Translations under genes and position numbers: made by a program
Shown: in pieces, positions 1 to 26,940 of the stretch
Layout: every line of letters starts with the position of its first letter
How positions within the stretch are numbered: the first letter of the stretch is position 1
NCBI GenBank assembly: GCA_016929395.1
Contig: JAFGIX010000025.1
Location: 27,720 to 91,719 of the forward strand
Direction of reading: 5' to 3'
Source: Candidatus Zymogenus saltonus
GTDB lineage: Bacteria; Desulfobacterota; Zymogenia; Zymogenales; Zymogenaceae
DNA length: 64,000 bases
Notes under the pieces: model-generated
The model's input: only the letters and a program-made list of their open reading frames with translations
Told to the model about the DNA's origin: nothing
Database searches by the model: none

Positions 1-1
1 C

Positions 2-2902
2 GAGAAGATACACTACAATGCCGATGACAAGACCTTCCTGAGCTTCCACGGACCAACGGGTGCCGGAAGCGAAAATGACAATATTATAAAGGTTTCCGAC
101 CTCGGATTTACAGTACTTGCGCTGAGATCGGTCTACAACGACAACAGGGATTTGAGGCTTAACAGCGAAGGCCCGAAGAGGAAGATCACATACATAGCGG
201 ACTTCATGCTCGAAAACCTCGTCTCCAAGAAGGACGGCGGCGTCTACACAAGCTACGATTACTCCAAGGGTCAACCCGATACGGGAACGAGGAGAACTCT
301 TGTGGATAACGCCCTCGCTATAAGGGCGTTCCTCACGGCGTACGCTGTAACGGAGGACAAGAAATACAGAGAGGCAGCCCTGAAGGTCTACGACTGGATG
401 GTGGAAGAGCTTTGGAAAGAGGAATACCTGATCTTCGTTGATGAAGAGGAGTACGACTACGAGGTCATACTGACACCCCAGTCGATAGGCGCGCTAATAG
501 CGGCGTTAAGGGAGCTTACGCTTAACGGCGATCCGGACAATATATACGACTACCTCGACAAGATGTCTTACACCACCGAGCGTATCCTTGACCAGGCGCA
601 GCTCCAGCTGTACGAGAACCGCTTCTTCCCATGGCACGCACCGCTGACTCTCATACCGGAAGACCCCAACGGAAGGTCCTACATAAAGCCGATTATAACG
701 CCGATAAGGGATAAGGATCAGACAAGAGACCTCGCGCCGATACTTGTGCGGAAGATGGTCTTAAACCTAACCCCGGCGGGAGCTATAGCATCCGGGGACG
801 AGCCGAAGGTATACGACTGGAAGAAGTGGAAGGCGAACCTGAGGTTCGATACTCCCGAACTGATTGTAAGCACAAAGGTGGACGATACGTTCGAGACGGA
901 TATAGGGATGTATTTCTCATCGTTGATCTACGACTACGAGAAAAACCTGAAGACAGAGCTCCCGACGTTCAACCCGTACTTTGCCGATCCCGACATACCA
1001 CACTACGCCGCTTACCTGAGCTATGAGGTTGCTGGATTCAACGTGAAGAACCTCACCTTGAACTCGACCATGGGAATAAAGCTTACCGGGTCAGACGTAG
1101 TAAAGGATATGGCGAAGAAGAGGGGAATGTCGCCCGATGAGTTCCTCAAGGATTTTGTCTCCAAGAGGGCGCCCAAAGAGGGCGAAGCAGGCAAATCCTT
1201 TGCAGGAAAGGTGATAGACAAGGTCAAGGGGGCTATCGGCACAAAAGAGAGATTTGAAGATATAATCTATCTCGAATATGCGGAGGGCAAGCCCTACTAC
1301 GAAGAGAAGATAGAAGAGGGATGGATTAAGGAGGAGATCGACAATTCCCTATACCCGTCATCGATCGCCCAGACGATGATAAGGCAGATGGAGCTTCTCG
1401 ATCAGCTGAATGACAAGAGTGAAAAAGAGCCTTCGGACAGACTGGTTAAAGATACGATGAGGCTGGCTGTGGTTGCGAAACACCGCTTCCTCGTGGATTT
1501 GACCGAGAAGATGAAGGAAGAGAAGAGAGGCTACATACCGCACGAGTTCGTGTTCAAGTGGGATAAAGAGCTGAAGAAAGAAGTCCCGGTCGTGAAAGAC
1601 AAGAACAGCGATCTCTTCGATCAGGTATCACTCATCTGGGCGATAGCCCTCTGGAACAAGAAGAGAGAAGAAGGCCTCTTCAACGAGCACGCTAATTACC
1701 TCGGGGACAAAAAGGTGGACGAAGAGCTTCTCGCATTCTACGTCAAGGCCCTCGTCGATAATCACTACGACAAGAAGAACGGTACCTTGATAACGGGAAG
1801 CGTAGATGCGGTAAAGGTGGGGATGGCCCTCGATATCCTGACGAGGATAGTAACGACGCTTCCCGAAGGACAGCTTCATGACCAGATTATGGAGATGATA
1901 AAGGCCCAGGCGGATTTCATCATGGACAAGATGATAGACGGTAGGGGAGTCATAGCGGTGGTGAAGGAGGACGGGACTCCATACAATGAGCTATGCGAGT
2001 TCGAGTCGATAGGGACCCATACGATCCCGCTAAACGCCCTCTACAGGACGTACGAGGTCACCGGTGACAAGAAATATCTCGATACGGCCTTGAACGTATT
2101 CCTCAAGCTGGACGAAAAGAAATGGGATCAGCAGTTAGGTCTCTATCTGTCATCCGGAACAATATACGACCATCAGGGAAAGACGAAGGTCGAGCTCAGC
2201 TACACGAATCTCGACCTGATATTCACCATTATGCTTATCTCGGAGCTCCAGCCGTACATGGAGCAGGAGAAGAAGATACTGACCGCATACCACATGATCA
2301 CCTTCATGAACAGGATCCTCGAGATAGGAAGTCTGGAGAGGTATCCCGAAAATAATGATAAGAAGGAGGGAGTGAAAAACAGTATAGAAAAGGATGTATA
2401 CTCGCCTCAGATTATAAGGAGCGTCAAGATCGTAGTTGACGAATCGCCGAAAGACGGCAAGCCGTGCGGCGTGTTCACCTTCCTCGTGATTATGGAGAAC
2501 TACTGCGTGGATGAACACGACCTGGCCGTAAATAACACGCTGACAAGGATGAGGGTCGAGGATACCCTGGCGGATGACTTCCACTACGTGCCGGGAACCA
2601 CCACGATAAACGGTAAGCCCTCGGCGGATCCGGTGGGAAGCAAAAAACTAAACTGGTACATACCGAGTCTGCGCTACAACAACAGGATAGTATTGAAATA
2701 CCAGGCCGTCGCGGACTGCGATATAAAGCCGGGTAAATATGAAAACACGCTTGATGTCAAATCCTTCATCTACTACGAGGGAGAGCTTTACCCATGCGAT
2801 GAGCTCGGCGTGCACGAGGGTGTGAAGATATCCGATGTGCTATGGACGGAAAAAGAGGAGGAGGAAAACTCCATTTGCCTGCCCTGTAACATGAAGGAAT
2901 AG
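2..2902 (+). CDS. DUF255/YyaL-like thioredoxin-fold plus (alpha/alpha)6 six-hairpin (N-acylglucosamine 2-epimerase-like) protein; 5' end lies outside the window; ~250-aa Cys-containing C-terminal extension
   Basis: The frame is open from position 2 with no upstream stop, and the listed ORF starts at a TTG. Motifs such as DNALAIRAFLTAYAVTEDKKYREAALKVYDWM and GGVYTSYDY are typical of AGE/DUF255 barrels. It ends with TAG at 2900-2902. Confidence 0.5.
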   Translation, partial: EKIHYNADDKTFLSFHGPTGAGSENDNIIKVSDLGFTVLALRSVYNDNRDLRLNSEGPKRKITYIADFMLENLVSKKDGGVYTSYDYSKGQPDTGTRRTLVDNALAIRAFLTAYAVTEDKKYREAALKVYDWMVEELWKEEYLIFVDEEEYDYEVILTPQSIGALIAALRELTLNGDPDNIYDYLDKMSYTTERILDQAQLQLYENRFFPWHAPLTLIPEDPNGRSYIKPIITPIRDKDQTRDLAPILVRKMVLNLTPAGAIASGDEPKVYDWKKWKANLRFDTPELIVSTKVDDTFETDIGMYFSSLIYDYEKNLKTELPTFNPYFADPDIPHYAAYLSYEVAGFNVKNLTLNSTMGIKLTGSDVVKDMAKKRGMSPDEFLKDFVSKRAPKEGEAGKSFAGKVIDKVKGAIGTKERFEDIIYLEYAEGKPYYEEKIEEGWIKEEIDNSLYPSSIAQTMIRQMELLDQLNDKSEKEPSDRLVKDTMRLAVVAKHRFLVDLTEKMKEEKRGYIPHEFVFKWDKELKKEVPVVKDKNSDLFDQVSLIWAIALWNKKREEGLFNEHANYLGDKKVDEELLAFYVKALVDNHYDKKNGTLITGSVDAVKVGMALDILTRIVTTLPEGQLHDQIMEMIKAQADFIMDKMIDGRGVIAVVKEDGTPYNELCEFESIGTHTIPLNALYRTYEVTGDKKYLDTALNVFLKLDEKKWDQQLGLYLSSGTIYDHQGKTKVELSYTNLDLIFTIMLISELQPYMEQEKKILTAYHMITFMNRILEIGSLERYPENNDKKEGVKNSIEKDVYSPQIIRSVKIVVDESPKDGKPCGVFTFLVIMENYCVDEHDLAVNNTLTRMRVEDTLADDFHYVPGTTTINGKPSADPVGSKKLNWYIPSLRYNNRIVLKYQAVADCDIKPGKYENTLDVKSFIYYEGELYPCDELGVHEGVKISDVLWTEKEEEENSICLPCNMKE

Positions 2903-3811: not shown

Positions 3812-4231
3812 ATGGATGACAGGGGAGAAAAAGGAGAAAAGAAAAGCGGGGCGGAGGCGGCGAGAATATTGAATATTCCATACAGGACCCTTATGAGATG
3901 GAGCGAAGGAGGACTGATAAATGTGGAGGGAGGCGGTTACAGAGGCAAGGGAACCCTATGGACTGAGTTGAACATAAGGGAGGCTTCCGTAATATATGCG
4001 CTTAGAACCGCAAGGCTCAGCCTTCAGAAGATAAGAGACATCATGGAATACCTCAAGAGCCTTGGCGAAAACCCGATGTCATCGGGGGATTTTCTGGTGG
4101 TAAAAGGAGAAGACGGCGAGCCGAGGGAGATAATAAAATTCGTAAGTACGGGCGAAGCAATATCACTTTTAAAAAGAACGAGAGGCCAGTTGGTCCTCCC
4201 CTTGTGGAAACCGGGGGATGAATATAAATGA
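3812..4231 (+). CDS. Small HTH DNA-binding protein (MerR/excisionase-like HTH_17-type)
   Basis: AEAARILNIPYRTLMRWSEGGLI resembles the MerR/excisionase helix-turn-helix. It is the first gene after a long AT-rich leader. Confidence 0.5.
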   Translation: MDDRGEKGEKKSGAEAARILNIPYRTLMRWSEGGLINVEGGGYRGKGTLWTELNIREASVIYALRTARLSLQKIRDIMEYLKSLGENPMSSGDFLVVKGEDGEPREIIKFVSTGEAISLLKRTRGQLVLPLWKPGDEYK

Positions 4232-4265: not shown

Positions 4266-4610
4266 ATGAGAACGGAAACGGCGAAAATAATTGAAATAGA
4301 TTTTGAGGAAGAAAGTATTTTAGGGTCGGAGGTTGAGGAGATAAAAAATCTTGATGACTTTGAGATATTTGCTGAAAAGAAGGGCATCTTGGTTGCGTTT
4401 GAAAGGATGACCCACCACGGAATTCTCGCAAGAGAGAACGGGAATACCGTCATGATAATCAACAAGATTCTTCCTCAAGATCAGCAAACCCTCGTTGCTT
4501 TTCATCTATACTGTCGCTATATAATGAGCTCCGAGGAGATGTACGCAATAAACCTACCCGATAACTACGTCTTGTTGAGGCTTTTCTTGGATCTCCATGG
4601 AGACTTGTAA
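4266..4610 (+). CDS. Hypothetical protein (114 aa)
   Basis: ORF with an AGGAGG-like RBS (ttaggaggataaaATG) 8 nt upstream. No recognisable motif. Confidence 0.35.
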   Translation: MRTETAKIIEIDFEEESILGSEVEEIKNLDDFEIFAEKKGILVAFERMTHHGILARENGNTVMIINKILPQDQQTLVAFHLYCRYIMSSEEMYAINLPDNYVLLRLFLDLHGDL

Positions 4611-4669: not shown

Positions 4670-4936
4670 TTGGAGGCAATAATAATGGAAACGAGAGAAG
4701 AGAGAAACGTTGATAAAAAGCTCATAGAGACGGTAAAAAGGCAGATAATGGAGGCAAGAAATATTCTGGAGGAGAGCGGAGACGAGATCCCTCTGGACGC
4801 CTTAAAGGAGCTTCAGGATCACTGCATCCTGTTCAAGTATTTCCCCGAGCTTAATGAATTTATTTCTGAATCGGGAATAGAAGGTCTGATCTATGATCTG
4901 TTAAACGGCGGCAGGGCGGTGGCGATAATGCAGTAG
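4670..4936 (+). CDS. Hypothetical acidic protein (88 aa)
   Basis: ORF closely following the previous gene on the same strand. The true start may be the internal ATG at 4685. Confidence 0.3.
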   Translation: MEAIIMETREERNVDKKLIETVKRQIMEARNILEESGDEIPLDALKELQDHCILFKYFPELNEFISESGIEGLIYDLLNGGRAVAIMQ

Positions 4937-5089
4937 GGCTAAAAAAGCTGTTTTTCATTCCTGAGGATTAATGGATAGAGGGGAAGAATTAGTAGTCTAT
5001 TGCCATTTTTGACGCAAGGAAAAAATAGTTAGCCCCGGCTGAGGTCGGGGCTTTTTGTATTATAGGGCAAAGGTATAAAGATAAATAAA

Positions 5090-5617
5090 TCATGATTTTT
5101 TTGGAGGCAGGGGAAAGATAAGGGAGACCCTATTGCGGTATTCCTCAAATTCGGTTCCGAAGTGTTCCAAAAGCCTCTTCTCCTCGATCTTCTTGAAATA
5201 GAGATAGGCGAGGGCGAAGAAAAAGAAAAACAGGAGTATCCCGGAGATCGAGCCGATGAAGATCGGTATAGAGAGATAAGCGGTAAAGGCCCCGAAGGCC
5301 ATTGGGTTTCTCGTAAAGCGATAGGGGCCCGTTATAACCAGCTTTTCTGTTACCGGGCTTATGGTTACGAGACGGTGGTAGTTGAAGGGCCCGCCCTTTC
5401 CCCTAACAATAAGCATTGCATTTGCCCAGAAGACGAAGAAAAGACCGACGGCGAGAAAGATGATCCCAAAAGGGATCCTGACCTCATCGGTGCCGAAGGT
5501 CTCAAAGCCAAGGAGCCTGTCGCAGAAGATATTGACGTGATAGATCGCAAATGGAATGATGACGCCGTTGAGGCCGAAACCGAGAAAGAGGCCGAGTATG
5601 TGTCTAAACGATTTCAA
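5090..5617 (-). CDS. Isoprenylcysteine carboxyl methyltransferase (ICMT)/phospholipid methyltransferase family membrane protein
   Basis: Multi-TM protein with VITGPYRFTRNPMAFG and a C-terminal EE..R motif typical of ICMT/PEMT-family methyltransferases. Confidence 0.7.
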   Translation of the reverse strand: MKSFRHILGLFLGFGLNGVIIPFAIYHVNIFCDRLLGFETFGTDEVRIPFGIIFLAVGLFFVFWANAMLIVRGKGGPFNYHRLVTISPVTEKLVITGPYRFTRNPMAFGAFTAYLSIPIFIGSISGILLFFFFFALAYLYFKKIEEKRLLEHFGTEFEEYRNRVSLIFPLPPKKS

Positions 5618-5776
5618 AAATACTCTCTAAAAATATTAGAGTAAAATATACAACATACAGAAAGAATATTCAACACAAAATGGAATAAAGACAAGATATA
5701 AACCATAAATAGATTGATAACGGGGCTTGTTTTAGATATAATATCAAATCAATAAGGAAATTACGGAACAGGGGAT

Positions 5777-7390
5777 ATGAAGATATTTATTATAGATCCA
5801 CCGCAGCAGGTTTTTAAGTATTTCATGGGACACATACCTTCTCCCGCGGTGACCCAGCTGGCGGCTTATATGGAGAGGGAGGGACACGAAGTCGAGATAT
5901 TGGATGTCACCACTTTTGAGAACTGCTGGGATGACCTCGAGCGGATGATAAGGGAGGGAAGACCGAATGTAGTGGGCATATCAAACAATTCAACAAACAC
6001 GATAAACAACGCCTTTCACACGGCTACACTGACGAAGATGATTGACCCTAAGATAGTAGTCGTTGGGGGAGGGGCACACATGACGGCACTTCCAGAGGAG
6101 AGCCTTAGTGTCAACGGGGATATAGACTTTATCGTGAGGGGAGAGGGGGAGGCCACGTTCGCGGAGCTGGTCAGCCGGCTGGGAGAGGGGAGAAAAGATT
6201 TTTCGAATATAAAGGGAATCGCATATCTGGACAACGGAAACGGAGGGAATTTCATTCAGACTCCGGATAGGGAGCTTGTGGAGGATATAAACGATCTGCC
6301 GATGCCGGCGTACCGCCTCCTTCCGATGCTCAAAGTAAAAAACCCGGAAGACTATGTAATGGCGTACAGGTTCCCGACCCTCGGGATGATACCTTATGAG
6401 TCGATCATGATTTCAACGACGAGAGGCTGTTTCGGCAAATGTCGTTTCTGCTCGGAGACCGCCTTTTGGCACCACACCTGGAGGTCGAGGAATGCAAAGA
6501 ACATGGTCGACGAGATGGAGCTTTTGAGCAAGGAGTACAACAGGACAAACTTCTACTTCGTCGACAACGCTTTCAACTGGAAGAGGGAGAGGATAACGGA
6601 ATTCATAGAAGAGCTCGAAAGCAGGGAGCTTAAAGGGATAACCTTCTGGTACCAGACGAGGGTAGAACTCTTTTTAAGGGATCTTGATCTGATCGACAGG
6701 CTAAAGAAATTGGGTCTATATCAGATGTCCTTCGGGGTAGAGACGGCGAGTCAGGATATTACGAATAAGTGGGGGAAAAATCAAAGGGTAGGTGATGTGA
6801 TAAAGGCGATGAAGGCCGCCAAGGAGCGGGATCTTGTACTTCTGACAAACGTCATGTGGGGTCACAGGGAGGATACGGCGGAGACCCTGAGGGCCACCTA
6901 CGAGATGATAAAGGGTTACTCCGATATATTCGCGCTCCAGATATTCACCCCGGTGCCGGGGACGCCCTATTATGAGGAATATCTGGAAAATGACATGATA
7001 AAGGAATACAACTGGGATTTGTGGGATATGTTCACGCCGGTCGTGGAGACGGATACGATCCCCCACGACAAGATGTTGAGAACAGTGGAGAAGATACAGT
7101 CGAGGTTTCACTTAAGACCTAAGATACTCTACAAGACATGGTTTTCAAAAAATCCATTTATAAGAAGAAACTACCAGACGACGATGGAGATAGTAAAGAG
7201 AACGCTTTCAAATACGCTCCACGAGGTGCAGACGAACTATCGTCCCTTCGAGGAGTTTATGGAGGAGAAGGGATATTCGATTGAGAAGACGATAAAAGGA
7301 ACGTGTATTGTCAAAGATAGGAGCAAGGGAGAGGGGAACGGGAGTAGGAGGGAGGATAGAAACGGGGACGTTCTGCATGAATCGGCCTAA
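5777..7390 (+). CDS. B12-binding domain radical SAM enzyme (class B), paralog 1
   Basis: N-terminal cobalamin-binding-like Rossmann region (IVVVGGGAHMTALPEE, DFIVRGEGE) and a CX3CX2C cluster motif (TTRGCFGKCRFCSE). Confidence 0.85.
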   Translation: MKIFIIDPPQQVFKYFMGHIPSPAVTQLAAYMEREGHEVEILDVTTFENCWDDLERMIREGRPNVVGISNNSTNTINNAFHTATLTKMIDPKIVVVGGGAHMTALPEESLSVNGDIDFIVRGEGEATFAELVSRLGEGRKDFSNIKGIAYLDNGNGGNFIQTPDRELVEDINDLPMPAYRLLPMLKVKNPEDYVMAYRFPTLGMIPYESIMISTTRGCFGKCRFCSETAFWHHTWRSRNAKNMVDEMELLSKEYNRTNFYFVDNAFNWKRERITEFIEELESRELKGITFWYQTRVELFLRDLDLIDRLKKLGLYQMSFGVETASQDITNKWGKNQRVGDVIKAMKAAKERDLVLLTNVMWGHREDTAETLRATYEMIKGYSDIFALQIFTPVPGTPYYEEYLENDMIKEYNWDLWDMFTPVVETDTIPHDKMLRTVEKIQSRFHLRPKILYKTWFSKNPFIRRNYQTTMEIVKRTLSNTLHEVQTNYRPFEEFMEEKGYSIEKTIKGTCIVKDRSKGEGNGSRREDRNGDVLHESA

Positions 7391-7489
7391 ATTGGGAAAT
7401 CGAGGCCTTGAGGATTTGTGGGGTAAAAAGGAGAAGGGTGTGGTTTGTGGTATATATTAAGTGATGACAAAAAAGGTGATGGGAGGAAG

Positions 7490-8911
7490 ATGAGAGTACT
7501 TATTGTCTCGGCAAACAGAGAGCTGGTTCCAGATCCGGTTTTCCCGTTGGGGGCGGCGTATGTCGCCTCGGCGGCGAGGGAATCGGGTCACGATACGGAT
7601 GTTTTGGATATATGTTTCGCGGATGACATTTCAAGAGAGGTCAAAGATAAAATATCGTCTTTTGGACCGGATCTTGTCGGTGTCTCGATAAGAAACGTCG
7701 ATAATGTCGCCTACCCCTTGGTTCTTACCTACGCCGAGGGACATAAAAACCTCATAGACGAGATACGCTCGTCCCACTTCGGTCCCATTGTGATGGGGGG
7801 GCCTGCCTTTACGCTGATGCCGGAGGAGTTTCTCGATTTCACGGGAGTCGAGATGGGGATACTGGGTGAGGGGGAAGATGCGATTGTGAAGCTTGCAGAT
7901 TCTCTGGAAAACGGGGGAAGCTTGGATAAAGTGCCCGGTCTCATTACAAGGGAGGCGGGCAAAACGCTGCAACGAAACGGAAACAAGACAAGGGTTGACG
8001 TCAACAAGATATGTACCCCCGCAAGGGATCTGCTCGATAGTGCCGCCTATCAGAAGTGGGGCGGCATGGTCGGGATACAGACAAAACGGGGATGTCCCAT
8101 CGACTGTATATATTGTACGTATCCGGTCGTGGAGGGGAAGGATATCAGATTGAGAGATCCGGGGGCCATAGTAGACGAGATAGAGAAAACCAACAAGGAG
8201 TACGGGGCGGACACCTTCTTTATTGTAGACAACGTATTCAATAACCCCCCGGAGCACGCAATAGAGGTTGCCGAAGAGATAAAAAGGAGAAAGATAGGCT
8301 TAAGGTTTTCGGCTTATATGAATCCGGGTTTTGTATCGGAGAGGCTGTTGGGGGTGCTTAAAGATGCGGGTTTTACAGGGGTCGACTACGGTGTGGATAG
8401 CCTTTCGGAGGGGGTGCTTAAAAACCTGAGAAAGAACTTCACGAAGGATAATGTGGTAAGGGCAGTCGAGTTGACAAGGGGGATGGGCATAGAGTGCTGC
8501 CTGAGCATGATATTTGGAGGCCCAGGGGAGACTCTCGACACGCTAAAGGAGACCGTCGATTCGATTGACGAGATTGCCCCGACGGCAGTCTTGGCAATCG
8601 TGGGAATCCGCCTCTATTCAGGAACGGGTATGCACAAGATCGCCAAAAGGGACAGGGTGGTCGGAGAAGAGGGAGTGGGATTGAAGCCGGTATTTTATAT
8701 ATCCCCGGATGTGGCCGATGAGGTGGTGGGCTTTGTGGCGGAGGCATCCCTTAAGCGCAACAACTGGCTCTTCCCAGGGCACATGATTATGGCCGGCCAG
8801 CAGCTTACACCGGATCAAAAGCCGGAGAGGTACGATCAGGGTCCCCTTGCGGAATTCAGGAAGCAGGGGATCAAGGGTAACCTGTGGGAGATGTTTGGCG
8901 CTATGAAATAG
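7490..8911 (+). CDS. B12-binding domain radical SAM enzyme (class B), paralog 2
   Basis: MRVLIVSAN..., IVMGGPAFTLMPEE, GILGEGED, then TKRGCPIDCIYCTY (CX3CX2C). Same architecture as the upstream gene. Start chosen at the ATG at 7490 within the 7445 ORF. Confidence 0.85.
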   Translation: MRVLIVSANRELVPDPVFPLGAAYVASAARESGHDTDVLDICFADDISREVKDKISSFGPDLVGVSIRNVDNVAYPLVLTYAEGHKNLIDEIRSSHFGPIVMGGPAFTLMPEEFLDFTGVEMGILGEGEDAIVKLADSLENGGSLDKVPGLITREAGKTLQRNGNKTRVDVNKICTPARDLLDSAAYQKWGGMVGIQTKRGCPIDCIYCTYPVVEGKDIRLRDPGAIVDEIEKTNKEYGADTFFIVDNVFNNPPEHAIEVAEEIKRRKIGLRFSAYMNPGFVSERLLGVLKDAGFTGVDYGVDSLSEGVLKNLRKNFTKDNVVRAVELTRGMGIECCLSMIFGGPGETLDTLKETVDSIDEIAPTAVLAIVGIRLYSGTGMHKIAKRDRVVGEEGVGLKPVFYISPDVADEVVGFVAEASLKRNNWLFPGHMIMAGQQLTPDQKPERYDQGPLAEFRKQGIKGNLWEMFGAMK

Positions 8912-8972
8912 TAGTGGAGACTTGACAATAAAATATAGAAGCGGACAATAACTTGTACTCGTAATATAGTAT

Positions 8973-11300
8973 ATGAACATTATCTTTATCTCATCTATCT
9001 TCCCGCCTGAATCCGGCGGGCCCGCGACCTACGTCAGGAGGCTGTCCCAGGACTTCCACAACAAGGGCCATCACGTAAAGCTCATCGCACTTTCTGAAAT
9101 AGAGATCGATGTAGATGACCCCCCTTATATAATCAGGATACCAAAAAAAGGCACGATATTTAGGAGGTCATTTAGACTTTTCAGGGCGGTTCTGAAACAC
9201 GGCAAGGATGTGGATATCATTTACGATAATGGAGGTCCCTGGGACACAGGCATACCGATTAGGTGGGCGAATATTTTTTTGAAAAAGAAATTGGTGACCA
9301 AGGTCGTTGGAGACAACGTCTGGGAATATGTGCGAAGAAACAGGTTGACAGATGACGGCATCAATGAATTTCAGGGTAAATTTTACGGTCCAAAGATAGC
9401 TCTCCTGAAGTACTTAAGAAATAAGACAACAATGGGCGCAGATTTAGTTATTACCCCGGGCCACTATCTGGCGGAGCTGGTGGCGGGCTGGGGTGTCAAG
9501 AGGGAAAATATCTCCGTTATTCACAATGCGGTTGATTTTAGCGAAAGGAACCAGGAGATACCAGAGATCATAAAGGGATGGGAGGGATCAAAGAAGATTA
9601 TAACCACCGCGGCAAGGCTGGTGCCCTGGAAGGGTATAGACGGCATAATAAGGGTAATTGCGGAGCTTGATAATGACGTCAATCTTTTGGTGATAGGAGA
9701 CGGCCCGGAGCTTTCAAACCTCAGAAAATTGACGGAAACCTTAGGGATAGACAAGAGGGTTCGCTTTACGGGACGTGTTACTCAAAAGGAAGTTCTCTCC
9801 CTCCTCTCACATTCCGACGTATTTGTCCTGAACACCGAATATGAGGGACTTCCCCATATTATCCTTGAGGCGTTCTCCGTCGGTGTTCCGGTGATTGCCA
9901 CCGATATTTGTGGAAATCCCGAGGTTGTTGAGAATGGTAAAAACGGCCTGTTGGTTCCTGTAAAGGATAATAAAGCGCTGAAGAATGCGATAATGAGGCT
10001 GATCAACGACACCGGATATTCAGCGAGGCTGGTTTCAAATTCAAGAGAGAGGCTTAATTACTTTGGATGGAACAGGCTTTTTGCACAAACGGAGAGAGTT
10101 TTTGACAGGCTTCTCAAGGGAATAAAGATCTTGTTCATAGCTTCTATCTACTATCCCGAATCGGGAGGTCCGGCCACTTACGTGAGGAACCTCGCCCACT
10201 ACCTTTACGGAGAGGGGCACAAGGTGAAGGTAATAGCCTTATCGGAGGTAAATAAGTTACCCGACGATCCTTTCTACCTTTCGAGAATTCCAAAAAGGGG
10301 GAGTATCTTTACAAGGTCTTTGAGCCTGTTTCTTTCTATTGTCAAGTATGGGCGGGATTACGACCTCCTCTACGATACGGGAGGAGGCCCCTGGGATACG
10401 GGCCTTCCGGTTCAAATGGCCAATTTTTTCTTGAGGAAAAGGCTCGCCATCAGGGTAGCTGGAGATATAGTCTGGGAATACGCCAGGAGAAACAGAATAA
10501 CAGTGGACGGACTCGACGAGTTTCAGCTGAAGTCTTACGGTCCCATAATCATGGTGATGAGACTCATAAGAAATTACTTTGCCAGGAGCGCCGACCTTGT
10601 AATATCGGGGAGTAACTACGTTGCGGGACTGACGAAGATATGGGGTGTAGACAAGAAAAAGATATCCGTGACACATAACGCCATCGAGCTGATAAATCCG
10701 AGAAAAATACCCACGCCGGAATTTGAAAAACCGAAGGGGGCGAGAAAGATCGTTGCCACAATAGCCCGCCTCGTTCCATGGAAGGGAATAGACGCCCTTA
10801 TCGAGGTTACGGCACAATTTCCGAAGGATATACACCTTTTGATAATTGGGGACGGACCCGAGAGAGAGAGACTTACGGATTTGGCAAAATCATTGAAGGT
10901 AATAAATCGGATTCACTTCATAGGAAGGGTGCCGAACGAGCAGATAATATCGTTTTTATCCTTCGCCGATGTCTTCGTCCTGAACACGGAATACGAGAGC
11001 CTCGCTCATGTAATTATCGAGGCGTACAACGCCGGTATCCCCGTAGTGGCAACAAATATCACGGGTAATCCGGAGATTATAGAAGACGGTAAGACAGGGA
11101 TCTTGGTTCCGTTGAAGGATAAAGACGCGCTGAAGGCGGCGATAGAGAGGATAATAACGAACAAAAAATTCGCCTCGAAAATTGTATCGGCGTCAAGGGA
11201 AAAACTCCCCTATTTCGGGCTCGAAAGGCAGTTAAAGGAGTCCGAGGAGCTTTTCAAGGATCTAATCTGGGGAAAAGAAGAAGGGAAAGCCGTGCGTTGA
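8973..11300 (+). CDS. Fused tandem GT4 (family 1) glycosyltransferase, two complete GT-B units in one 775-aa polypeptide
   Basis: Both halves start with I(F/L)FI(S/A)SI(F/Y)(P/Y)PESGGPATYVR. Each half carries the GT4 E-x7-E region (EGLPHIILEAFSVGVPVIATDICGNPEVVENGKNGLLV and ESLAHVIIEAYNAGIPVVATNITGNPEIIEDGKTGILV). Confidence 0.8.
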   Translation: MNIIFISSIFPPESGGPATYVRRLSQDFHNKGHHVKLIALSEIEIDVDDPPYIIRIPKKGTIFRRSFRLFRAVLKHGKDVDIIYDNGGPWDTGIPIRWANIFLKKKLVTKVVGDNVWEYVRRNRLTDDGINEFQGKFYGPKIALLKYLRNKTTMGADLVITPGHYLAELVAGWGVKRENISVIHNAVDFSERNQEIPEIIKGWEGSKKIITTAARLVPWKGIDGIIRVIAELDNDVNLLVIGDGPELSNLRKLTETLGIDKRVRFTGRVTQKEVLSLLSHSDVFVLNTEYEGLPHIILEAFSVGVPVIATDICGNPEVVENGKNGLLVPVKDNKALKNAIMRLINDTGYSARLVSNSRERLNYFGWNRLFAQTERVFDRLLKGIKILFIASIYYPESGGPATYVRNLAHYLYGEGHKVKVIALSEVNKLPDDPFYLSRIPKRGSIFTRSLSLFLSIVKYGRDYDLLYDTGGGPWDTGLPVQMANFFLRKRLAIRVAGDIVWEYARRNRITVDGLDEFQLKSYGPIIMVMRLIRNYFARSADLVISGSNYVAGLTKIWGVDKKKISVTHNAIELINPRKIPTPEFEKPKGARKIVATIARLVPWKGIDALIEVTAQFPKDIHLLIIGDGPERERLTDLAKSLKVINRIHFIGRVPNEQIISFLSFADVFVLNTEYESLAHVIIEAYNAGIPVVATNITGNPEIIEDGKTGILVPLKDKDALKAAIERIITNKKFASKIVSASREKLPYFGLERQLKESEELFKDLIWGKEEGKAVR

Positions 11301-11331
11301 CGGCAGATCTATAAAATAAAAAGCCCTGCCG

Positions 11332-12309
11332 CTACCAAGGATTTTTAAACCACTCGATGAATCTCTCGACGCCTTCCTTCATGGACGTGTTTGGATTATA
11401 GCCTAAAAGACTCCTTGCCTTTTCTATATCCGCAAAAGTGCGTTTTACATCTCCCGGCTGGCGGGGCAGCATGACCTTTTCGGTCTCCTTTCCCAGTCCC
11501 GATTCGATCAATTCTATAAGCTCTAAAAGATTAACGGACACCGACTCCCCCAAATTTATTATCTCATAGAAGGGCGTGGTCTCGGATGATATGAAACCAA
11601 ACGCGCCAATCAGCCCGTCTATTATATCATCGATATATGTGTAATCCCTGCTCCCCTTCCCCTGATCGTACACCTCTATTTTAGATCCGTTGTTTATCAG
11701 GTTTGTGAACTTGTGGATCGCCATGTCCGGACGCTGTCTCGGCCCGTATACGGTGAAAAAACGAAAGCAAAGAATCTTCAGGTTGTACAGCTTGTGATAG
11801 GTGTAGCAAAGCTCCTCACAGCATTTCTTGGTAACGCCGTAGGGGGATATCGGCTTGGCCATGAGGTCGTCCTCCGAAAAGGGGATGTTGGGACAGTCGC
11901 CGTAGACGGAGGATGAGGAGGCAAAGAGGAGGTCCTTAATATCGAGCTCCTTCATGGCCTCGAGGATATTGTTTGTGCCGAGGACGTTCACCTCCTGATA
12001 GAGGAGAGGATTCTTTATGGAGGGTCTTACGCCTGCCTTTGCGGCGAGGTGTACAACAAGATCGGGGGAGATCGACCTGAAGGAGTCGATTATAAAATCG
12101 TAGTTCCTGATATCCCCCTCAATGAGCTTAAACCCATCCTTTTTCAGGAGGGATTCAATATTTCTCCTTTTGAATTTCTCGGGATAGTAGTCGTCGAAGT
12201 TATCGATTACGAAAACCTCATTCCCAAGGGAAACGAGCCTATCCGAAAGGTGCGATCCGATAAAGCCCGCACCGCCTGTAACCACTACTTTTTTGATATC
12301 TTTTGACAT
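11332..12309 (-). CDS. NAD-dependent epimerase/dehydratase, extended SDR (UDP-sugar 4-epimerase/UDP-glucuronate epimerase-like)
   Basis: VVVTGGAGFIGSHL Rossmann motif, YxxxK context (YGVTK) and a length of 325 aa. Confidence 0.85.
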   Translation of the reverse strand: MSKDIKKVVVTGGAGFIGSHLSDRLVSLGNEVFVIDNFDDYYPEKFKRRNIESLLKKDGFKLIEGDIRNYDFIIDSFRSISPDLVVHLAAKAGVRPSIKNPLLYQEVNVLGTNNILEAMKELDIKDLLFASSSSVYGDCPNIPFSEDDLMAKPISPYGVTKKCCEELCYTYHKLYNLKILCFRFFTVYGPRQRPDMAIHKFTNLINNGSKIEVYDQGKGSRDYTYIDDIIDGLIGAFGFISSETTPFYEIINLGESVSVNLLELIELIESGLGKETEKVMLPRQPGDVKRTFADIEKARSLLGYNPNTSMKEGVERFIEWFKNPW

Positions 12310-12368
12310 ATTTATCTTTGAATACAGAATTTAAATAAAGATGTGAATTCTAATTGAAAAAGACGCTG

Positions 12369-13013
12369 TTACCTCTTCCTTTTCAGCGTGTATATTTTGC
12401 TCTTTTCCACCCCGAGCTCGCTTAGAGATGAGATCCTTTCCTTAACCTCTTCAGTATGTAGGATGAGAATTGCATCAAATGAAAAATCCCTGATCTCAGA
12501 CAGTGGTGAGATCTTCATCTCAAGGCAGAGGCCGCCTGCCCTGTCGTCCACGATTCCGACAATCTCAATTTCGTTTACCCTTGAAAATAAGACCGCAAGC
12601 TCCGCTATCTCGCCTGTGCCGTAAAGGAGTATATTATCGATGCCGTCGACCCTTATCTCACTCAGCACCTCTTGAAGGGAATCCTTGAGCTCCCTGTAGA
12701 ACCTGAGGGAATACCTGAGGTACTCATAGGTGAGACGGGTCTTTTCAGCTATCCCCTTCGGAGTGAGCATATACTTGACGCGGTGGGAGGGGATGGTCGT
12801 GGCCTTGAAATACCCTTTCTCCACAAGCCTCTTTATAAAGCGGTTGACAAGCCCCACGGAGATGTCGATCTTCTGGGAGAGGGTCCTCTGGCTGATGGTA
12901 TTATCCCTCTCTATCTCCTCCATTATACGGAGCGTTCTTATCTCCTCTCTGTCCACATCGATCTCCAAAACGTTCAACGAGTAAACAATATCAAATACTA
13001 TAGGTTTTGTCAA
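12369..13013 (-). CDS. Winged-helix plus Rossmann-like regulator (Rex-like architecture)
   Basis: wHTH segment ISQRTLSQKIDISVGLVNRFIKRLVEKGYF, then ILLYGTGEIAELAVLF...IEIVGIVDD, resembling the Rex NAD(H)-sensing fold. Embedded in the glycosyltransferase cluster. Confidence 0.45.
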   Translation of the reverse strand: MTKPIVFDIVYSLNVLEIDVDREEIRTLRIMEEIERDNTISQRTLSQKIDISVGLVNRFIKRLVEKGYFKATTIPSHRVKYMLTPKGIAEKTRLTYEYLRYSLRFYRELKDSLQEVLSEIRVDGIDNILLYGTGEIAELAVLFSRVNEIEIVGIVDDRAGGLCLEMKISPLSEIRDFSFDAILILHTEEVKERISSLSELGVEKSKIYTLKRKR

Positions 13014-13156
13014 AAAAAATTGTATAAAAAAGATTTAAATAAAGCGGGCCGAAAAGCGGTAATTTTGAAATATTAAGAATATCAGGTTGCAGTTAAAGTC
13101 GATATTGAGTATACTTTGAAAAATAATCTTCAGGAAAATATTTAGGGGAATATGCC

Positions 13157-14290
13157 TTGGCACACAGAATCCTGCACATTCAAAAGATAACGGGAATCAG
13201 CGGCTCCGAAAACCACCTTGTAGACCTCATGTCCAACCTTGACAGAAATAGGTTTGAGCCGACTTTTCTGGGGCTGGTAGAACCGAACAACCGCGTGGAT
13301 GACTATTTTGACATACTTGAATCGAGGTCTGTTCAAGGAGAGAGGATAGTGATCAGATCGCACCTTGATTTATCATGCCTTATGGAGATTGTGCGGTTCA
13401 TCAAGGGCGGGAGTTTCGACATAGTCCACACCCACCTGATCCACGGCGATATCTACGGCATCATGGCGGCGGTGATGGCCCGCGCCCCACACATCATCTC
13501 CTCGAAGCACGGTTACGACAACTACGACAAAACGAGCCACTTTTATAAAATAAACGGCCTGTTCAGCTTTTTCGTTAAGAGGGTGATAACGATCTCGGAC
13601 GCCCTGCAGGACAAGGTCAACAAGAGCGACATGATACCGAAAAAAAAGATGGTGACGGTCCATTACGGTCTCGACTGGGAGGGGTATCTGAAAAGGTCGA
13701 AGGCAACAGGCGAAAGGGTGAGGAAGGAGCTGAACGTGGGGGAGGGGATCTTCACGTTCGCCTCGGTAGGGAGGCTGGTGGACGTCAAGGGTTACCCGTA
13801 TCTGATCGAGGCGGCGGCAAGGATGAAGCGGGAGGGATATAAAGATTTTACGGTATTTATTATGGGGGACGGGCCCTTGAGGGAAGAGCTTACCAAAAAG
13901 GCCCACGACATGGGTGTAGGGGATGTGGTAAGGTTTCTGGGGAGGCGCGAGGACGTGTCGTCGATCCTTTCAATATCTGACGCCTTCGTCCTGCCGACGC
14001 TGGGGGAGGGATTCGGCCTGGTCCTTCTCGAGGCGATGGCCCATAGGCTCCCCGTCATATCAACATCCACGATGTCCATACCCGAGATCGTGGTCGAGGA
14101 GGAGACGGGCTTACTCGTCCAGCCTAAGGACCCGGAGGGGCTTGCCAAAGCGATGGGGCGCCTCATGAAAGAGCGGGCCGAGTCCAAAAGAATGGGCGAG
14201 GCTGGATTTGAGCGGCTTAAGGAGAAGTTCACGATCCCGGAGATGGTCAGAAAGACCGAACAGATTTACGAAGAAGTCCTCGGGATTTAG
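13157..14290 (+). CDS. GT4 (family 1) glycosyltransferase
   Basis: EGFGLVLLEAMAHRLPVISTSTMSIPEIVVEEETGLLV E-x7-E motif and a GT-B layout. Confidence 0.85.
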   Translation: MAHRILHIQKITGISGSENHLVDLMSNLDRNRFEPTFLGLVEPNNRVDDYFDILESRSVQGERIVIRSHLDLSCLMEIVRFIKGGSFDIVHTHLIHGDIYGIMAAVMARAPHIISSKHGYDNYDKTSHFYKINGLFSFFVKRVITISDALQDKVNKSDMIPKKKMVTVHYGLDWEGYLKRSKATGERVRKELNVGEGIFTFASVGRLVDVKGYPYLIEAAARMKREGYKDFTVFIMGDGPLREELTKKAHDMGVGDVVRFLGRREDVSSILSISDAFVLPTLGEGFGLVLLEAMAHRLPVISTSTMSIPEIVVEEETGLLVQPKDPEGLAKAMGRLMKERAESKRMGEAGFERLKEKFTIPEMVRKTEQIYEEVLGI

Positions 14291-15822
14291 TCCTTCGTCC
14301 TCCTGAACTTCCTGTTCATGGCGAGGATGAAGAGGGAGAGTATGGTGGCACTAATAATAGTCTGAACTCCCCTTATAAATGGGGCCAGAGGGCTTTTTAA
14401 CAAATCGTAAATAGGTTTGACCTTACCGAGTGTTAGCAAGTCAAGGCTTATCATAATTCCGTTGTAGGTGTTGAATAAGAATCCCACATCGTCTTTACCG
14501 TTGTAGTTAATGCCAATTATGAGAGAATAAATAAGGCCGAAAAGGAGCCAAAATCCAATCAACCACAGTAGCGCCCTTACCGGCCTCTCGCCGTAGAGGG
14601 AGATCCACTTGTAGAGGGTTAGCGCCTTTCTGATTATCCACTTTTCCCGCGTTCCCTTCCTTCGCATCTCCATGGCGCCGACAAAGAAGTCCCCCGCCTC
14701 GTGGTATCTGCCGCTCCTCTCGTAATTGAGCCGAAGCTGATTGTAGAGTTGTTGGACATGATAATGATTTCCTGCATCCTTTACTTTTCCCCTAAGAAAC
14801 TCCTCATCGTAAATCTCAATACGTTTAAAGATGTTCTTAAGAGATGTTACAAATTTTTCCAATATATTTTTTACATCCCAACTATTAGAGGGTGAACTTT
14901 GATTGAAATCATCATTTACTGCTACTTCTTCAAATAAATCTTTTTCAGTATAAGTTTGATTAACCCAGAAAACCTCCTTAAATTTAATATAACTAATATC
15001 CGTTCCTAAAAAACGGCAACGATTTAGGTCAACACCATCGAAGGTTACTTTGTCCGGTCTCTCGAATGAGACACCAAAAAACTTTGCTTTGTTTTCGTTG
15101 TAGAAAGTTTTTCCCTCAAATTTAACCTCACCTTTGCCTGAGAATTCAGCATAATTAAAAATTGTCCAATCATTGTCTGAGTCTTCGATATCCTCCAAAG
15201 CGTCTCCCCTTCCTTGACGGTATGGTAGACCCCCGGCCCCGTCGCACAGGCTCCCAGTGTTATAAGGAGTAACATCAGGACAACAGTGGAAACGGCCTTT
15301 ATTGAATTTTGCACCACTAAAGATTGTACCACCTTCGCCAGAGAATTTTGCATATCTGAAGCTTGTTCCCTCATCGCCAAAGAATTCTGTCCCAACAAAG
15401 TTTATCATTCCCTTGCCGGAGAATATTGCTTCACCGAAGTCTGTACCCATATTACCTAAAAATTTTGCCCTACTGAAGTCAGTCCCGCAATTACCGTAAA
15501 ATTTAGCATCAGATAAATCTACATCGCATAGAAAGCGAGCATGTGAGAAATTTGCATTCTCGAATTCAAGGCCATTAGTTGATTTAGAGTCATTACGCAA
15601 CCTTTTAAAATCAAAACTTTTTGGAAAAACAAAGCCCCTGAAATCATGTTTACCAGATTCGTACAATTTCTTGAATTCTTCATAAAATTTCTCAACGTTC
15701 TTATCTTCCCTCCAACTGTGGAAAATACATTTCTTTTTACCATCCCTATCTGCTTCTTCTATCGCAATGTGATTACAAAATTCTACAAGCCAAGGATAAT
15801 ATTTATATTCACACTTCGCCAT
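14287..15822 (-). CDS. Pentapeptide-repeat protein with a C-terminal two-TM channel-like membrane domain
   Basis: Long run of pentapeptide repeats (ENANFSHARFLCDVDLSDAKFYGNCGTDFSRAKFLGNMGTDFGEAIFSG...), then a C-terminal hydrophobic pair (ALLWLIGFWLLFGLIYSLIIG and TIISATILSLFILAM) with an intervening re-entrant-like segment. Confidence 0.7.
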   Translation of the reverse strand: MAKCEYKYYPWLVEFCNHIAIEEADRDGKKKCIFHSWREDKNVEKFYEEFKKLYESGKHDFRGFVFPKSFDFKRLRNDSKSTNGLEFENANFSHARFLCDVDLSDAKFYGNCGTDFSRAKFLGNMGTDFGEAIFSGKGMINFVGTEFFGDEGTSFRYAKFSGEGGTIFSGAKFNKGRFHCCPDVTPYNTGSLCDGAGGLPYRQGRGDALEDIEDSDNDWTIFNYAEFSGKGEVKFEGKTFYNENKAKFFGVSFERPDKVTFDGVDLNRCRFLGTDISYIKFKEVFWVNQTYTEKDLFEEVAVNDDFNQSSPSNSWDVKNILEKFVTSLKNIFKRIEIYDEEFLRGKVKDAGNHYHVQQLYNQLRLNYERSGRYHEAGDFFVGAMEMRRKGTREKWIIRKALTLYKWISLYGERPVRALLWLIGFWLLFGLIYSLIIGINYNGKDDVGFLFNTYNGIMISLDLLTLGKVKPIYDLLKSPLAPFIRGVQTIISATILSLFILAMNRKFRRTKD

Positions 15823-15917: not shown

Positions 15918-17156
15918 CTACCTCCCCAACCCCTTCGCTATCGCCCGGAATACCTCGATCGTCTCGAGCTCCCTGTCGAAGCCGTCCACGTCGTAGTGGG
16001 CGTAAGCCGAGGTCTTTGCGATAACGACGTTATACTCCGGGTGGACGTACAAAAACTGGTTGTAGACACCTATCCCAAGGAAATCCCCCTCGGGGTTTTG
16101 AGGAATCCACCACTGGTAGCCGTAGCCGAGGACCCAGTCGGAAGCGGGATTGTCCCCCGGCATGAGGTGGGGGGCGTCCGGCGTGATAGAAGCCTTGACC
16201 TAATCCCTTGGCACGACCTGCTCGCAGTTCCAGCCGCCGCCGTTAAGATAGAGGCGGCCGAAGCGGGCGTAGTCGCGCAGGACGACGTTCAGCCCGCCGA
16301 AGGCGAGCTCCATCCCCTTGCCGTCGGTGAGGAAGTAGGCATCGGACTCCATCCCGATCTTTTTCCAGATCTTCTCTTCGAGATAAGACGACAGGTTTTG
16401 CCCCGTGGCCTCCCTCAAGACCATACCTAAAACCTGGGTGTCCATGCTGACGTAGTGGTTGTACGTTCCCGGCTCCCGCTCATTGATGAGGGACGCCACG
16501 AACTTGTCCAGCGACAGGTTCAGCGCGATTACCCTCCCCATCCTGTTGATGTCCGAGAAGAAGTCGAAGTAGTCCTCGTTGAAGCGGATGCCGGACGACA
16601 TCTGGAGGACGTCCTTTATCGAGACGCCGTCATAGCCGGTGCCTTTAAGCATCGGGACATAGTCGGAGACGGGATCGGCGATGTCCTTGATGTACCCCTC
16701 GTCGACGGCAATCCCCACCAGGGCCGAGACGAACGACTTCGCCACCGACCAGGAGATCGCCTTCGACTCCTCACTGTTTCCGAGGTAGTACTCCTCGAAG
16801 ACGATTTTGTCGTCCAAGATGACTACAAGTCCAGTGGTCCAGGTGTCTTCAAGAAACTTATTGATATTTTTGGTCTCCCCGTTGTAGACGTACGTCTCGG
16901 GAAGCTTCATCTCGGCCCTTCCGAACTCGTACGTGGTGTCGCCCCTGTGGACAACCCTGTAGTCGATGAAGCCTCCCATACTTCTGAAGTTCTCCACGAT
17001 GACGTCCTCGTCGAAGAGGGTGATGACCTTATAGAGCCTTATCAGCTCCTTGTGATAGATTGCCCCGAGGGCGACGAGGACAACAAGGAGGATGACAACG
17101 GCCTTGAAAAGCTTTGACAGGAATACGCCTTTTTTTCCTGTTTTCTTTTTGCTCAT
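15918..17156 (-). pseudogene. Beta-lactamase-family serine hydrolase interrupted by an in-frame TAG (codon at 16200-16202)
   Basis: The N-terminal ORF (16200..17156) and the C-terminal ORF (15918..16163) are in the same frame. The sequence reads ...WNCEQVVPRD-TAG-VKASITPDAPHLMPGDNPASDWVLGYGYQWW. Family homologs have Trp at the stop position (DWV). Confidence 0.6.
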
Positions 17157-26304: not shown

Positions 26305-26940
26305 CTATTTCATTTTAAATTCAAATGGAATGGCAAAGGAGCGGTCGCTTATGTAGACGTCCTGAACCATCACAACGAACCTGTTTACGGAGTTCGGGAG
26401 CTCCGGAAAGACCAGCAGTCCCTCGACGGCGGTCCCGGGGGGAATATCGAGGTATATATCGTACATGGTCTTTTTGAATGGCGCCGGGTCGCCCAGCGGC
26501 GCGTAGCGGTTAAAACGCACCAAAACCTCAGAGTAATCCAGGGAGCCCCTGAAGTACTGCCCGCTTACATAGACGCTCGATCTCTTCGGATTAAACCGCA
26601 TCATACTCTTGGTTTTATTCGTTATTGTGACCTCGAAGAGGAAAAACTTCTCCCTCATAGAATAGTAATTCAAAAAAGGATTTGTGATCTCGTGCTTCAG
26701 AAAGAAGAGGTCCGTGTCGGAATGATCCATATATCTGATTTTTATTACTGCGTCCAATACGGTAAAATAAATGGTGTTCCCGTCGAACCTGAATCCCTTC
26801 GGCAGATCCTTCCCGTCTCCGACGGGGATGACCATGACGGCTCCTTTTTTATTTCCCATCCCCGCACAGGAAAAAAGGAGCAAAATGATTGCCGATGCAA
26901 ATAGAATCTTAAAAGTACGCTTCATGAATATCTCAACCAA
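26305..26940 (-). CDS. Hypothetical lipoprotein
   Basis: Signal peptide with lipobox LLLFSC(A)G. Confidence 0.5.
   Translation of the reverse strand: MVEIFMKRTFKILFASAIILLLFSCAGMGNKKGAVMVIPVGDGKDLPKGFRFDGNTIYFTVLDAVIKIRYMDHSDTDLFFLKHEITNPFLNYYSMREKFFLFEVTITNKTKSMMRFNPKRSSVYVSGQYFRGSLDYSEVLVRFNRYAPLGDPAPFKKTMYDIYLDIPPGTAVEGLLVFPELPNSVNRFVVMVQDVYISDRSFAIPFEFKMK

Follow-up and report, generated by a model that had tools for sequence, protein, structure and literature searches.

Solved class-B (B12-binding) radical S-adenosylmethionine (SAM) enzymes of differing chemistry have one common fold, and several described members of this superfamily can be compared with a locus in Candidatus Zymogenus saltonus that is the subject of this analysis. 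The locus lies within a 64,000-nucleotide stretch of contig JAFGIX010000025.1 (positions 27,720 to 91,719 of the forward strand, hereafter the window) and comprises a trio of genes (Module A, 5090–8911) encoding an integral-membrane SAM-dependent methyltransferase of the PEMT/ICMT family (hereafter PEMT) and two class-B radical SAM enzymes, rSAM-1 and rSAM-2, followed by a glycosyltransferase (GT) block (Module B, 8973–14290). Taken together, gene context and family relationships make it moderately probable that the trio is an anaerobic lipid-tailoring unit juxtaposed with a lineage-specific glycan block.

Extended type II fatty-acid synthase (FASII) clusters containing SAM-radical enzymes were first described in Kuenenia and Desulfotalea and tied hypothetically to ladderanes and polyunsaturated hydrocarbons (PMC2649909), and a 2026 review still describes the function of the TIGR04072/ladderane-type rSAMs as unknown (PMC13459092). 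The NCBIfam family TIGR04072, named 'lipid biosynthesis B12-binding/radical SAM protein', covers such extended FASII/ladderane-type enzymes from Kuenenia, Desulfotalea and Nitrospirota, and rSAM-2 has the same domain architecture. The clusters of PMC2649909 also resemble the trio in having an anaerobic Desulfobacterota host, whereas the trio is devoid of fatty-acid synthase (FAS) genes and carries a PEMT-like methyltransferase and rSAM-1 instead. Archaeal GrsA/GrsB, the Gmm/glycerol dialkyl glycerol tetraether (GDGT) methylases and Ted are likewise class-B rSAMs, acting anoxically on unactivated lipid-tail carbons and often encoded as divergent pairs. The trio differs from them in its bacterial host, in which isoprenoid tetraethers are not expected; the window shows no tes, mss or grs genes, and identity to these enzymes is at the superfamily level only. 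Archaeal B12-rSAM homologues that are ~30% identical to each other are lipid methylases, ring synthases or an O2-independent desaturase, and sequence alone therefore cannot fix the chemistry of the trio.

Other described systems share individual features with the locus. HpnJ, HpnR and HpnP are B12-rSAMs acting on a lipid or on its sugar-derived head group, and most of the length of the HpnJ and HpnR models is covered by the matches to rSAM-1, but neither squalene-hopene cyclase nor any other hpn gene is found nearby. Among curated families rSAM-1 matches BchE best, and homologues commonly carry that name in JGI annotation; the score is below the cut-off, however, and the host is a non-phototrophic member of the Desulfobacterota. 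The PEMT protein shares its domain, polytopic form and SAM-binding region with ICMT/PEMT enzymes such as Ma-ICMT (4A2N), MddA and the lipid A phosphate methyltransferase LmtA, yet tight pairing of such an enzyme with two B12-rSAMs is absent from the papers searched. The downstream block, in turn, resembles GT4-based exopolysaccharide (EPS) and lipopolysaccharide-core loci in its GT4 enzymes, extended short-chain dehydrogenase/reductase (SDR) epimerase and MarR_EPS-like regulator, while differing in that priming transferase, flippase, polymerase and ABC exporter are missing from it and no curated GT equivalog is reached. In the open-access literature on TIGR04072 and on branched GDGT (brGDGT) and bacterial lipid B12-rSAM methylases, no paper was found that assigns a function or describes the trio. 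By gene content, the GT block is ordinary, and the trio represents a distinct, compact variant of lipid-associated B12-rSAM clusters, with a PEMT partner and without FAS genes.

Genes were called from the open reading frame (ORF) listing together with Pfam and NCBIfam profile scans, and promoter and terminator sites are consensus matches only. All genes named in the preliminary description of this region were recovered at their given positions; the PEMT gene (5090..5617, minus strand), which is divergent from rSAM-1, was absent from that list. PEMT encodes a 175-aa protein with ~4–5 hydrophobic segments and a PF04191 domain. On the plus strand, rSAM-1 (5777..7390, 537 aa) is followed by rSAM-2 (7490..8911, 473 aa), and both proteins match PF02310 (N-terminal B12-binding Rossmann domain) and, behind it, PF04055 (radical SAM core) above the Pfam cut-offs, supporting their earlier assignment as class-B radical SAM enzymes. 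The [4Fe-4S]-ligating cysteines of the CxxxCxxC motif are invariant in the respective orthologue alignments (C218/C222/C225 in rSAM-1; C202/C206/C209 in rSAM-2). A terminator-like hairpin at 5031..5052, bidirectional and present on both strands (9-bp stem with 7 GC pairs, then a T-run), closes the PEMT gene on the minus strand and the upstream genes on the plus strand, and the best sigma-70-like promoter match of the region (5714..5742, plus strand; TTGATA-17-TATAAT, 11/12 positions) sits 35 bp 5' of the rSAM-1 start. The genes for rSAM-1, rSAM-2 and the GT4–GT4 enzyme that opens the GT block run in one direction, separated by gaps of 54–61 bp without terminator-like sites between them.

The rSAM-2 ORF extends to a TTG at 7445. 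Translated from ATG 7490, the protein matches MBN1572542.1 (Candidatus Zymogenus saltonus, Desulfobacterota) at every residue, whereas an exact look-up of the TTG-start version returned no record, and gene calls on the same contig use ATG. The start is therefore probably ATG 7490, since this version matches a database protein exactly and the longer one is off record. A second rSAM-2 paralogue is encoded in the same species on a 33-kb contig (P0134, MBN1572368.1); it is 55% identical and nearer to the type found in loci L002 and L006, which hints at a second trio in the Ca. Zymogenus saltonus genome.

Conservation of the trio was followed by reading the DNA around rSAM-1 orthologues, scanning GTDB species representatives and mapping the window proteins onto all loci. 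Six loci, all of Zymogenia-like Desulfobacterota, hold PEMT, rSAM-1 and rSAM-2 side by side: the window (L001), L087–89, L003, L002 (equal to L005), L006 and L090. Identities of the three proteins to those of the window are 91%, 85% and 90% in L087–89, 74%, 59% and 71% in L003, a Zymogenaceae metagenome-assembled genome (MAG), and 68%, 55% and ~50% in L002/L005 and L006, both from MAGs labelled "uncultured delta proteobacterium". The L090 locus holds an additional rSAM-1 paralogue. These loci represent ~3 independent contexts with unrelated flanks, formed by the Zymogenus loci, by L003 and by the L002/L006/L090 group. The arrangement within the trio also varies: in the Zymogenaceae loci PEMT lies upstream of the rSAM pair and points away from it, in the others it follows the pair in the same orientation, and in L006 and L090 the two rSAM genes overlap by 4 bp.

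PEMT is the only neighbour conserved with the rSAM pair. No GT, epimerase or regulator gene lies within ±10 kb of the rSAM pairs in L002/L005, L003, L006 and L090. Likewise, no FAS genes (acyl carrier protein (ACP), FabD/F/G/Z) occur within ~10 kb of the trio in the window, L002, L003, L006 or L090, and no conserved precursor ORF, protease, transporter, bza/cob or bacteriochlorophyll gene stands beside it in any lineage compared. The trio, not an rSAM–GT set, is the unit kept across lineages. This synteny departs from the glycan-type cluster of the preliminary description, as outside the Ca. Zymogenus subclade the rSAM pair keeps PEMT without GTs.

In three trio loci, a soluble 371-aa protein is encoded directly upstream of rSAM-1 (L002 8839-9954, L006 8703-9821, L090 3128-4246). 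It has no family assignment, gives a weak GNAT match (E = 0.009) and is 73–87% conserved among these loci, but the window lacks it; in the non-Zymogenaceae trio clade, this protein may act as an acyltransferase and thus as a fourth component.

Family placement of the rSAMs was approximated by curated hidden Markov model scores and pairwise identities in place of a phylogeny. rSAM-2 scores 367.9 bits against TIGR04072, a borderline pass of the cut-off of 360, while rSAM-1 reaches 113 bits against the same model. The curated NCBIfam scores of rSAM-1 are 214 bits for BchE (cut-off 481), 138 for HpnJ (578) and 134 for HpnR (650), suggesting that it belongs to an unnamed subfamily distantly similar to BchE, HpnJ and HpnR. 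An HpnJ or HpnR identity finds no support, as rSAM-1 is below both equivalog cut-offs and no hpn genes lie nearby. The two enzymes had been described as paralogous, but they are only 24% identical and, in an all-against-all comparison, fall into separate subfamilies, with identities of 34–49% within the rSAM-1 subfamily and 38–43% within the rSAM-2/TIGR04072 subfamily, so that they are not close paralogues. Close orthologues of rSAM-1 are scarce, amounting to ~10 protein clusters at ≥65% identity among 5.8 billion proteins, and archaeal proteins from Thermoplasmata and Bathyarchaeia are 29–34% identical to it. The Zymogenia rSAM-2 clade is 52–100% identical internally, and the bulk of the TIGR04072 family is at ≤44%. 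The best solved relatives are 9CCB for rSAM-1, an entry cited in a paper on MgmA, the glutamine methylase of methyl-coenzyme M reductase (MCR), and TsrM (6WTE, 130 bits) for rSAM-2.

The genomic context of more distant relatives provides the link to lipids. All rSAM relatives with informative context (34–45% identical to rSAM-1; 38–43% to rSAM-2, in L085 and L072) are found in fatty-acid or lipid clusters, and none in sugar-nucleotide clusters. Specifically, L004 (a metagenome contig) and L007 (Nitrospirae) encode two ketosynthases, a phytoene-desaturase-like amine oxidase, a 4HBT thioesterase and two rSAM-1-type enzymes, and L009 (a Deltaproteobacteria MAG) encodes FabD, a thioesterase, an rSAM-1-type enzyme and a DUF4070-type B12-rSAM. 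In L085 (Nitrospirota), a TIGR04072 rSAM is followed by FabD, FabG, ACP and FabZ. L072, another Deltaproteobacteria MAG, combines PlsAR-like genes, a B12-rSAM, an LpxL-like acyltransferase, FabD, an rSAM-1-type enzyme, a DUF4070 rSAM, an rSAM-2-type enzyme, FabG and FabF. The preliminary description had named sugars or lipids as typical class-B substrates; the lipid half of this alternative is retained, whereas no curated C- or P-methyltransferase or glycan-associated rSAM family is matched and the relatives show no sugar-nucleotide context.

Several features of these loci deserve separate record. L072 (3032-16183) holds four B12-rSAM genes in one lipid cluster, its PlsAR-like genes correspond to an HGD-D/DUF2229 protein and a BcrAD ATPase, and it is the only locus seen to join the rSAM-1 and rSAM-2 subfamilies with FAS genes. 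In L085 (1-13812), the genes immediately preceding the TIGR04072 rSAM–FabD-FabG-ACP-FabZ run encode a GT4, an amine oxidase, a WecA-type transferase, AsnB, a GT1, a double GT2, another B12-rSAM and a Wzx flippase. It is a second instance, independent of the window, in which lipid-type rSAMs border on a glycan block. Phytoene-desaturase-like (PDH-like) enzymes are encoded with relatives of rSAM-1 and rSAM-2 in lipid clusters elsewhere; the window has such genes too, but ~40 kb from the trio. There, the minus-strand segment 54143-58577 encodes a MerR regulator, a 536-aa amine-oxidase/phytoene-desaturase-like flavoprotein, a second such protein and a cytochrome c3; the second flavoprotein gene is apparently divided into 55772–56209 and 54572–55684, possibly as a frameshift or pseudogene.

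The PEMT protein scores 46 bits against PF04191 (cut-off 25), and its conserved C-terminal SAM-binding region (R-N-P-M…EE…F…Y) can be aligned with the solved ICMT 4A2N. Its scores against curated equivalogs are 27–29 bits versus cut-offs of 160–325, none of which is reached; these weak curated matches are all lipid- or thiol-methylating enzymes. PEMT orthologues at 49–90% identity adjoin the rSAM pair in L002, L003, L006, L087 and L090. A metagenome scan with the PEMT alignment returned only relatives at 27–49% identity, none with an rSAM neighbour, and no new trios.

The trio would tailor a membrane lipid; this reading draws on where its homologues are encoded and on the lipids and thiols that enzymes of the ICMT/PEMT type methylate. 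In the proposed mechanism, both soluble rSAMs would act under anoxic conditions on unactivated carbons of acyl or alkyl chains through 5'-deoxyadenosyl-radical and cobalamin chemistry. As the commonest class-B chemistry, C-methylation would be the likeliest reaction, with desaturation or cyclisation as alternatives. The membrane methyltransferase may place an O- or N-methyl group on this lipid as well, at a head group, carboxylate or phosphate. The GT block, which follows the trio in the genus-level Ca. Zymogenus subclade alone, might be co-transcribed with the rSAMs and glycosylate the trio product there, while the trio would work without it. Such co-transcription, and with it glycosylation of the trio product in Ca. 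Zymogenus, is possible because only 61 bp without a terminator-like site separate rSAM-2 from GT4–GT4, but it is judged rather unlikely. The fuller proposal, that the trio is a self-contained O2-independent system making an undescribed membrane lipid, for example one with acyl or alkyl chains methylated, desaturated or cyclised at two positions and a methylated head group or carboxylate, converted into a glycolipid by the GT block in Ca. Zymogenus, is put forward tentatively and with less than even expectation.

A number of observations weigh against a lipid-tailoring trio. FAS, ACP and acyltransferase genes are absent beside it, and the lipid assignment draws on homologues at 34–43% identity. 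rSAM-2 clears the TIGR04072 cut-off by 8 bits only, no close relative has a known substrate or product, and the function of the TIGR04072/ladderane-type enzymes is itself unproven (PMC13459092). The PEMT–rSAM association is narrow and specific to one clade, since no rSAM gene adjoins those PEMT relatives that are less than 50% identical. Moreover, the co-directional passage from rSAM-2 into GT4–GT4 leaves room for a functional GT link in this organism.

The GT block itself begins with the GT4–GT4 glycosyltransferase (8973..11300, plus strand; 775 aa), which starts 61 bp 3' of rSAM-2. As previously described, it contains a fused GT4 pair: the Glyco_transf_4 + Glycos_transf_1 unit is present in full twice, and an identity of 51.6% between the two halves points to internal duplication. 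An EX7E motif, E-G-L-P-H-I-I-L-E, is visible in the GT4 translation. The following minus-strand gene (11332..12309, 325 aa) encodes a predicted extended-SDR NAD-dependent sugar-nucleotide epimerase/dehydratase with GxxGxxG and YxxxK motifs, consistent with the earlier epimerase assignment; among curated families it scores highest against GalE, with 175 bits (cut-off 262), and TviC, at 139 bits, is also below cut-off. Upstream of the epimerase and divergent from the next GT4 lies a winged helix-turn-helix (wHTH) regulator (12369..13013, minus strand). The preliminary description called it Rex-like, but only HTH_24/MarR-type wHTH and C2185-like_N domains are found, without Rex domains, and MarR_EPS (TIGR04176) is matched at 68.6 bits against a cut-off of 88. 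The further GT4 noted earlier (13157..14290, plus strand; 377 aa) carries Glyco_transf_4 and Glycos_transf_1 and scores highest against the curated family TIGR03088, where its 196 bits fall short of the required 409. With it, the GT-B-fold domains beside the rSAMs number three, as noted earlier.

Convergent with this GT4 is a pentapeptide-repeat-like protein (14287..15822, minus strand; 511 aa), for which the weak pentapeptide matches (~24 bits), the convergent orientation and two C-terminal hydrophobic helices (414–440 and 482–503) agree with the preliminary description, while its "channel-like" designation has no family support. NCBIfam and PADLOC scans of this protein gave no match, its conservation was assessed within the same organism only (L001), and it is probably unrelated to either the trio or the GT block. 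The absence of a Wzx/Wzy/ABC exporter holds for 5–16 kb in the domain scans, and no priming transferase, flippase, polymerase or ABC exporter was detected at 1–24 kb of the window.

The complete block of GT4–GT4, epimerase, regulator and GT4 is found behind the rSAM pair only in the window and in L087–89, where the GT is 86% identical. A 5.2-kb Logan contig carrying P0123 and P0261 shows GT4–GT4 adjoining rSAM-2 (74–75% identity), with the rest of the block not visible. GT4–GT4 orthologues at ≥75% identity are confined to the Zymogenus subclade, and none between 75% and 41% identity was found in the 5.8-billion-protein database, which includes the proteins of the other trio-bearing MAGs. More distant GT4–GT4 homologues (31–40%, one of them in a Desulfobacterota MAG) stand beside GGDEF, APS kinase, ATP-grasp, Kdo-kinase-like, DegT, GT2 and GT4 genes, with no rSAM. 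Collectively, these domain assignments and distributions characterize the block as a presumably generic, lineage-specific envelope-glycan block with its own regulator.

The preliminary description had read 5777–14290 as one pathway, in which the rSAMs modify a sugar or head group while the GTs and epimerase build a doubly modified glycan or glycolipid. The co-directional, closely spaced order of rSAM-1, rSAM-2 and GT4–GT4 fits such a pathway, as does the retention of this adjacency in L087–89 and the Logan contig, down to ~74% identity. Set against this are the four other loci in which orthologous rSAM pairs keep PEMT with no GT, epimerase or regulator within ±10 kb, the restriction of GT4–GT4 orthologues to the Zymogenus subclade, and the own regulator and divergent promoter region of the GT block. 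Two further cases can be cited in its favour, namely P0281, a GT4–GT4–B12/rSAM fusion in a Wzy/Wzx polysaccharide locus, and the TIGR04072 rSAM of L085, which adjoins a GT4 and a glycan block; yet the rSAM domain of P0281 is 24% identical to rSAM-1 and rSAM-2, and the L085 GT4 is 25% identical to the window GTs. The curated models for the secondary-metabolism C-/P-methyltransferases KedN5 and PhpK and for the glycan-associated rSAM family TIGR04295 (B12_rSAM_oligo), with cut-offs of 700, 600 and 400, are matched far below these values (86, 84 and 64 bits for rSAM-1; 40, 106 and 60 bits for rSAM-2). With orthologous trios lacking GTs, GT4–GT4 homologues elsewhere lacking rSAMs and rSAM relatives residing in lipid clusters, the proposed "doubly modified glycoconjugate" does not hold up as the product of a single pathway, which we consider improbable. 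Of the two glycan-linked cases, P0281 (JGI 3300075153, 40.8-kb contig; 1,246 aa) was dropped as a Rosetta-stone link because its rSAM domain is only 24% identical and of another subfamily; its locus also has a deacetylase, methyltransferases and an rSAM/SPASM gene, and it is a genuine glycan-associated class-B rSAM of a different subfamily.

A non-lipid substrate for the trio, whether a peptide or protein receiving carboxyl methylation besides C-methylation of the ribosomally synthesized and post-translationally modified peptide (RiPP) or MCR type, or a tetrapyrrole or corrinoid cofactor (BchE-/BzaD-like), is quite improbable. The family scores lend it some colour, as rSAM-1 matches BchE at 214 bits and the RiPP enzyme ApyD at 129 bits and has the MgmA-associated 9CCB as best solved relative, while rSAM-2 matches BzaD at 210 bits and TsrM at 167 bits (NCBIfam) and 130 bits (PDB entry); in addition, ICMT-type enzymes methylate prenyl-cysteine carboxylates. 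However, the BchE, ApyD, BzaD and TsrM scores are all well below the family cut-offs, no precursor, protease, transporter, bza/cob or bch partner genes accompany the trio in any lineage compared, and the nearest homologues with informative context are all in lipid clusters. Several specific candidates within this range were rejected. A BchE/tetrapyrrole identity was dropped on TIGR02026 scores of 214 bits (rSAM-1) and 86 bits (rSAM-2) versus 481 and on the lack of bch genes in the window, and a RiPP reading on the lack of conserved precursor or partner genes across lineages. The analogy to the Bza operon, which likewise combines a methyltransferase with two B12-rSAMs, was set aside given BzaD scores of 210 bits (rSAM-2) and 93 bits (rSAM-1) versus 450 and the membrane type of PEMT; BzaC is a soluble methyltransferase. 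A defence-system reading, prompted by GT4-conflict Pfam matches, was also discarded, as PADLOC gave nothing meaningful: the rSAMs weakly match a single candidate model, PDC-M51A (34.5 and 53.8 bits), and for the regulator there are no more than weak wHTH matches. There remains the explanation that PEMT and the two rSAM genes are functionally unrelated and merely co-located. PEMT-family proteins at 27–49% identity do occur without rSAM neighbours, and the functional coupling of the three genes is read from gene context. Chance association is nevertheless unlikely, and in our estimate strongly so, because the trio is conserved across rearranged contexts: the three genes stay together in ~3 independent settings despite full turnover of the flanks and inversion of PEMT, with the 4-bp rSAM overlap in two loci.

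Beyond the trio and the GT block, the window opens within the gene for a giant CLIPPER/DUF11-repeat surface protein, whose C-terminal end it encodes (1-2902, plus strand) and which reaches at least 4,659 aa in the relative L087 (1-7368). It is followed by a MerR regulator (3812–4231) and small ORFs at 4266–4610 and 4670–4936, all conserved at the genus level only. Past the pentapeptide-repeat-like gene, a beta-lactamase-family ORF (16200–17156, minus strand) covers only the first two thirds of the Pfam model, and the short ORF 15918–16163 (minus strand) may be its displaced remainder, separated by a frameshift. Three radical SAM genes without a B12 domain are located at 26933-27922 (minus strand), 48088-48960 (plus strand) and 61004-62182 (minus strand), the second of which precedes a 1,021-aa protein without Pfam match (48977–52042) and a TPR protein. 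GGDEF, RelA/SpoT and IspG genes are also present in the window and mark it as bacterial.

For annotation, the locus carries a warning that shallow GT adjacency is poor ground for assigning a sugar substrate to a class-B rSAM. More broadly, B12-rSAMs are emerging as an anaerobic toolkit that edits inert lipid tails, with ring synthases, methylases and a desaturase demonstrated in archaea, while the bacterial TIGR04072/ladderane-type enzymes have been functionally unassigned since 2009. A three-gene trio is small enough for its chemistry to be revealed by heterologous expression and, if the lipid-tailoring reading is true, would provide a compact, tractable entry into ladderane-type (TIGR04072) rSAM chemistry. 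The trio could also point to new bacterial lipid biomarkers of anoxic sediments.

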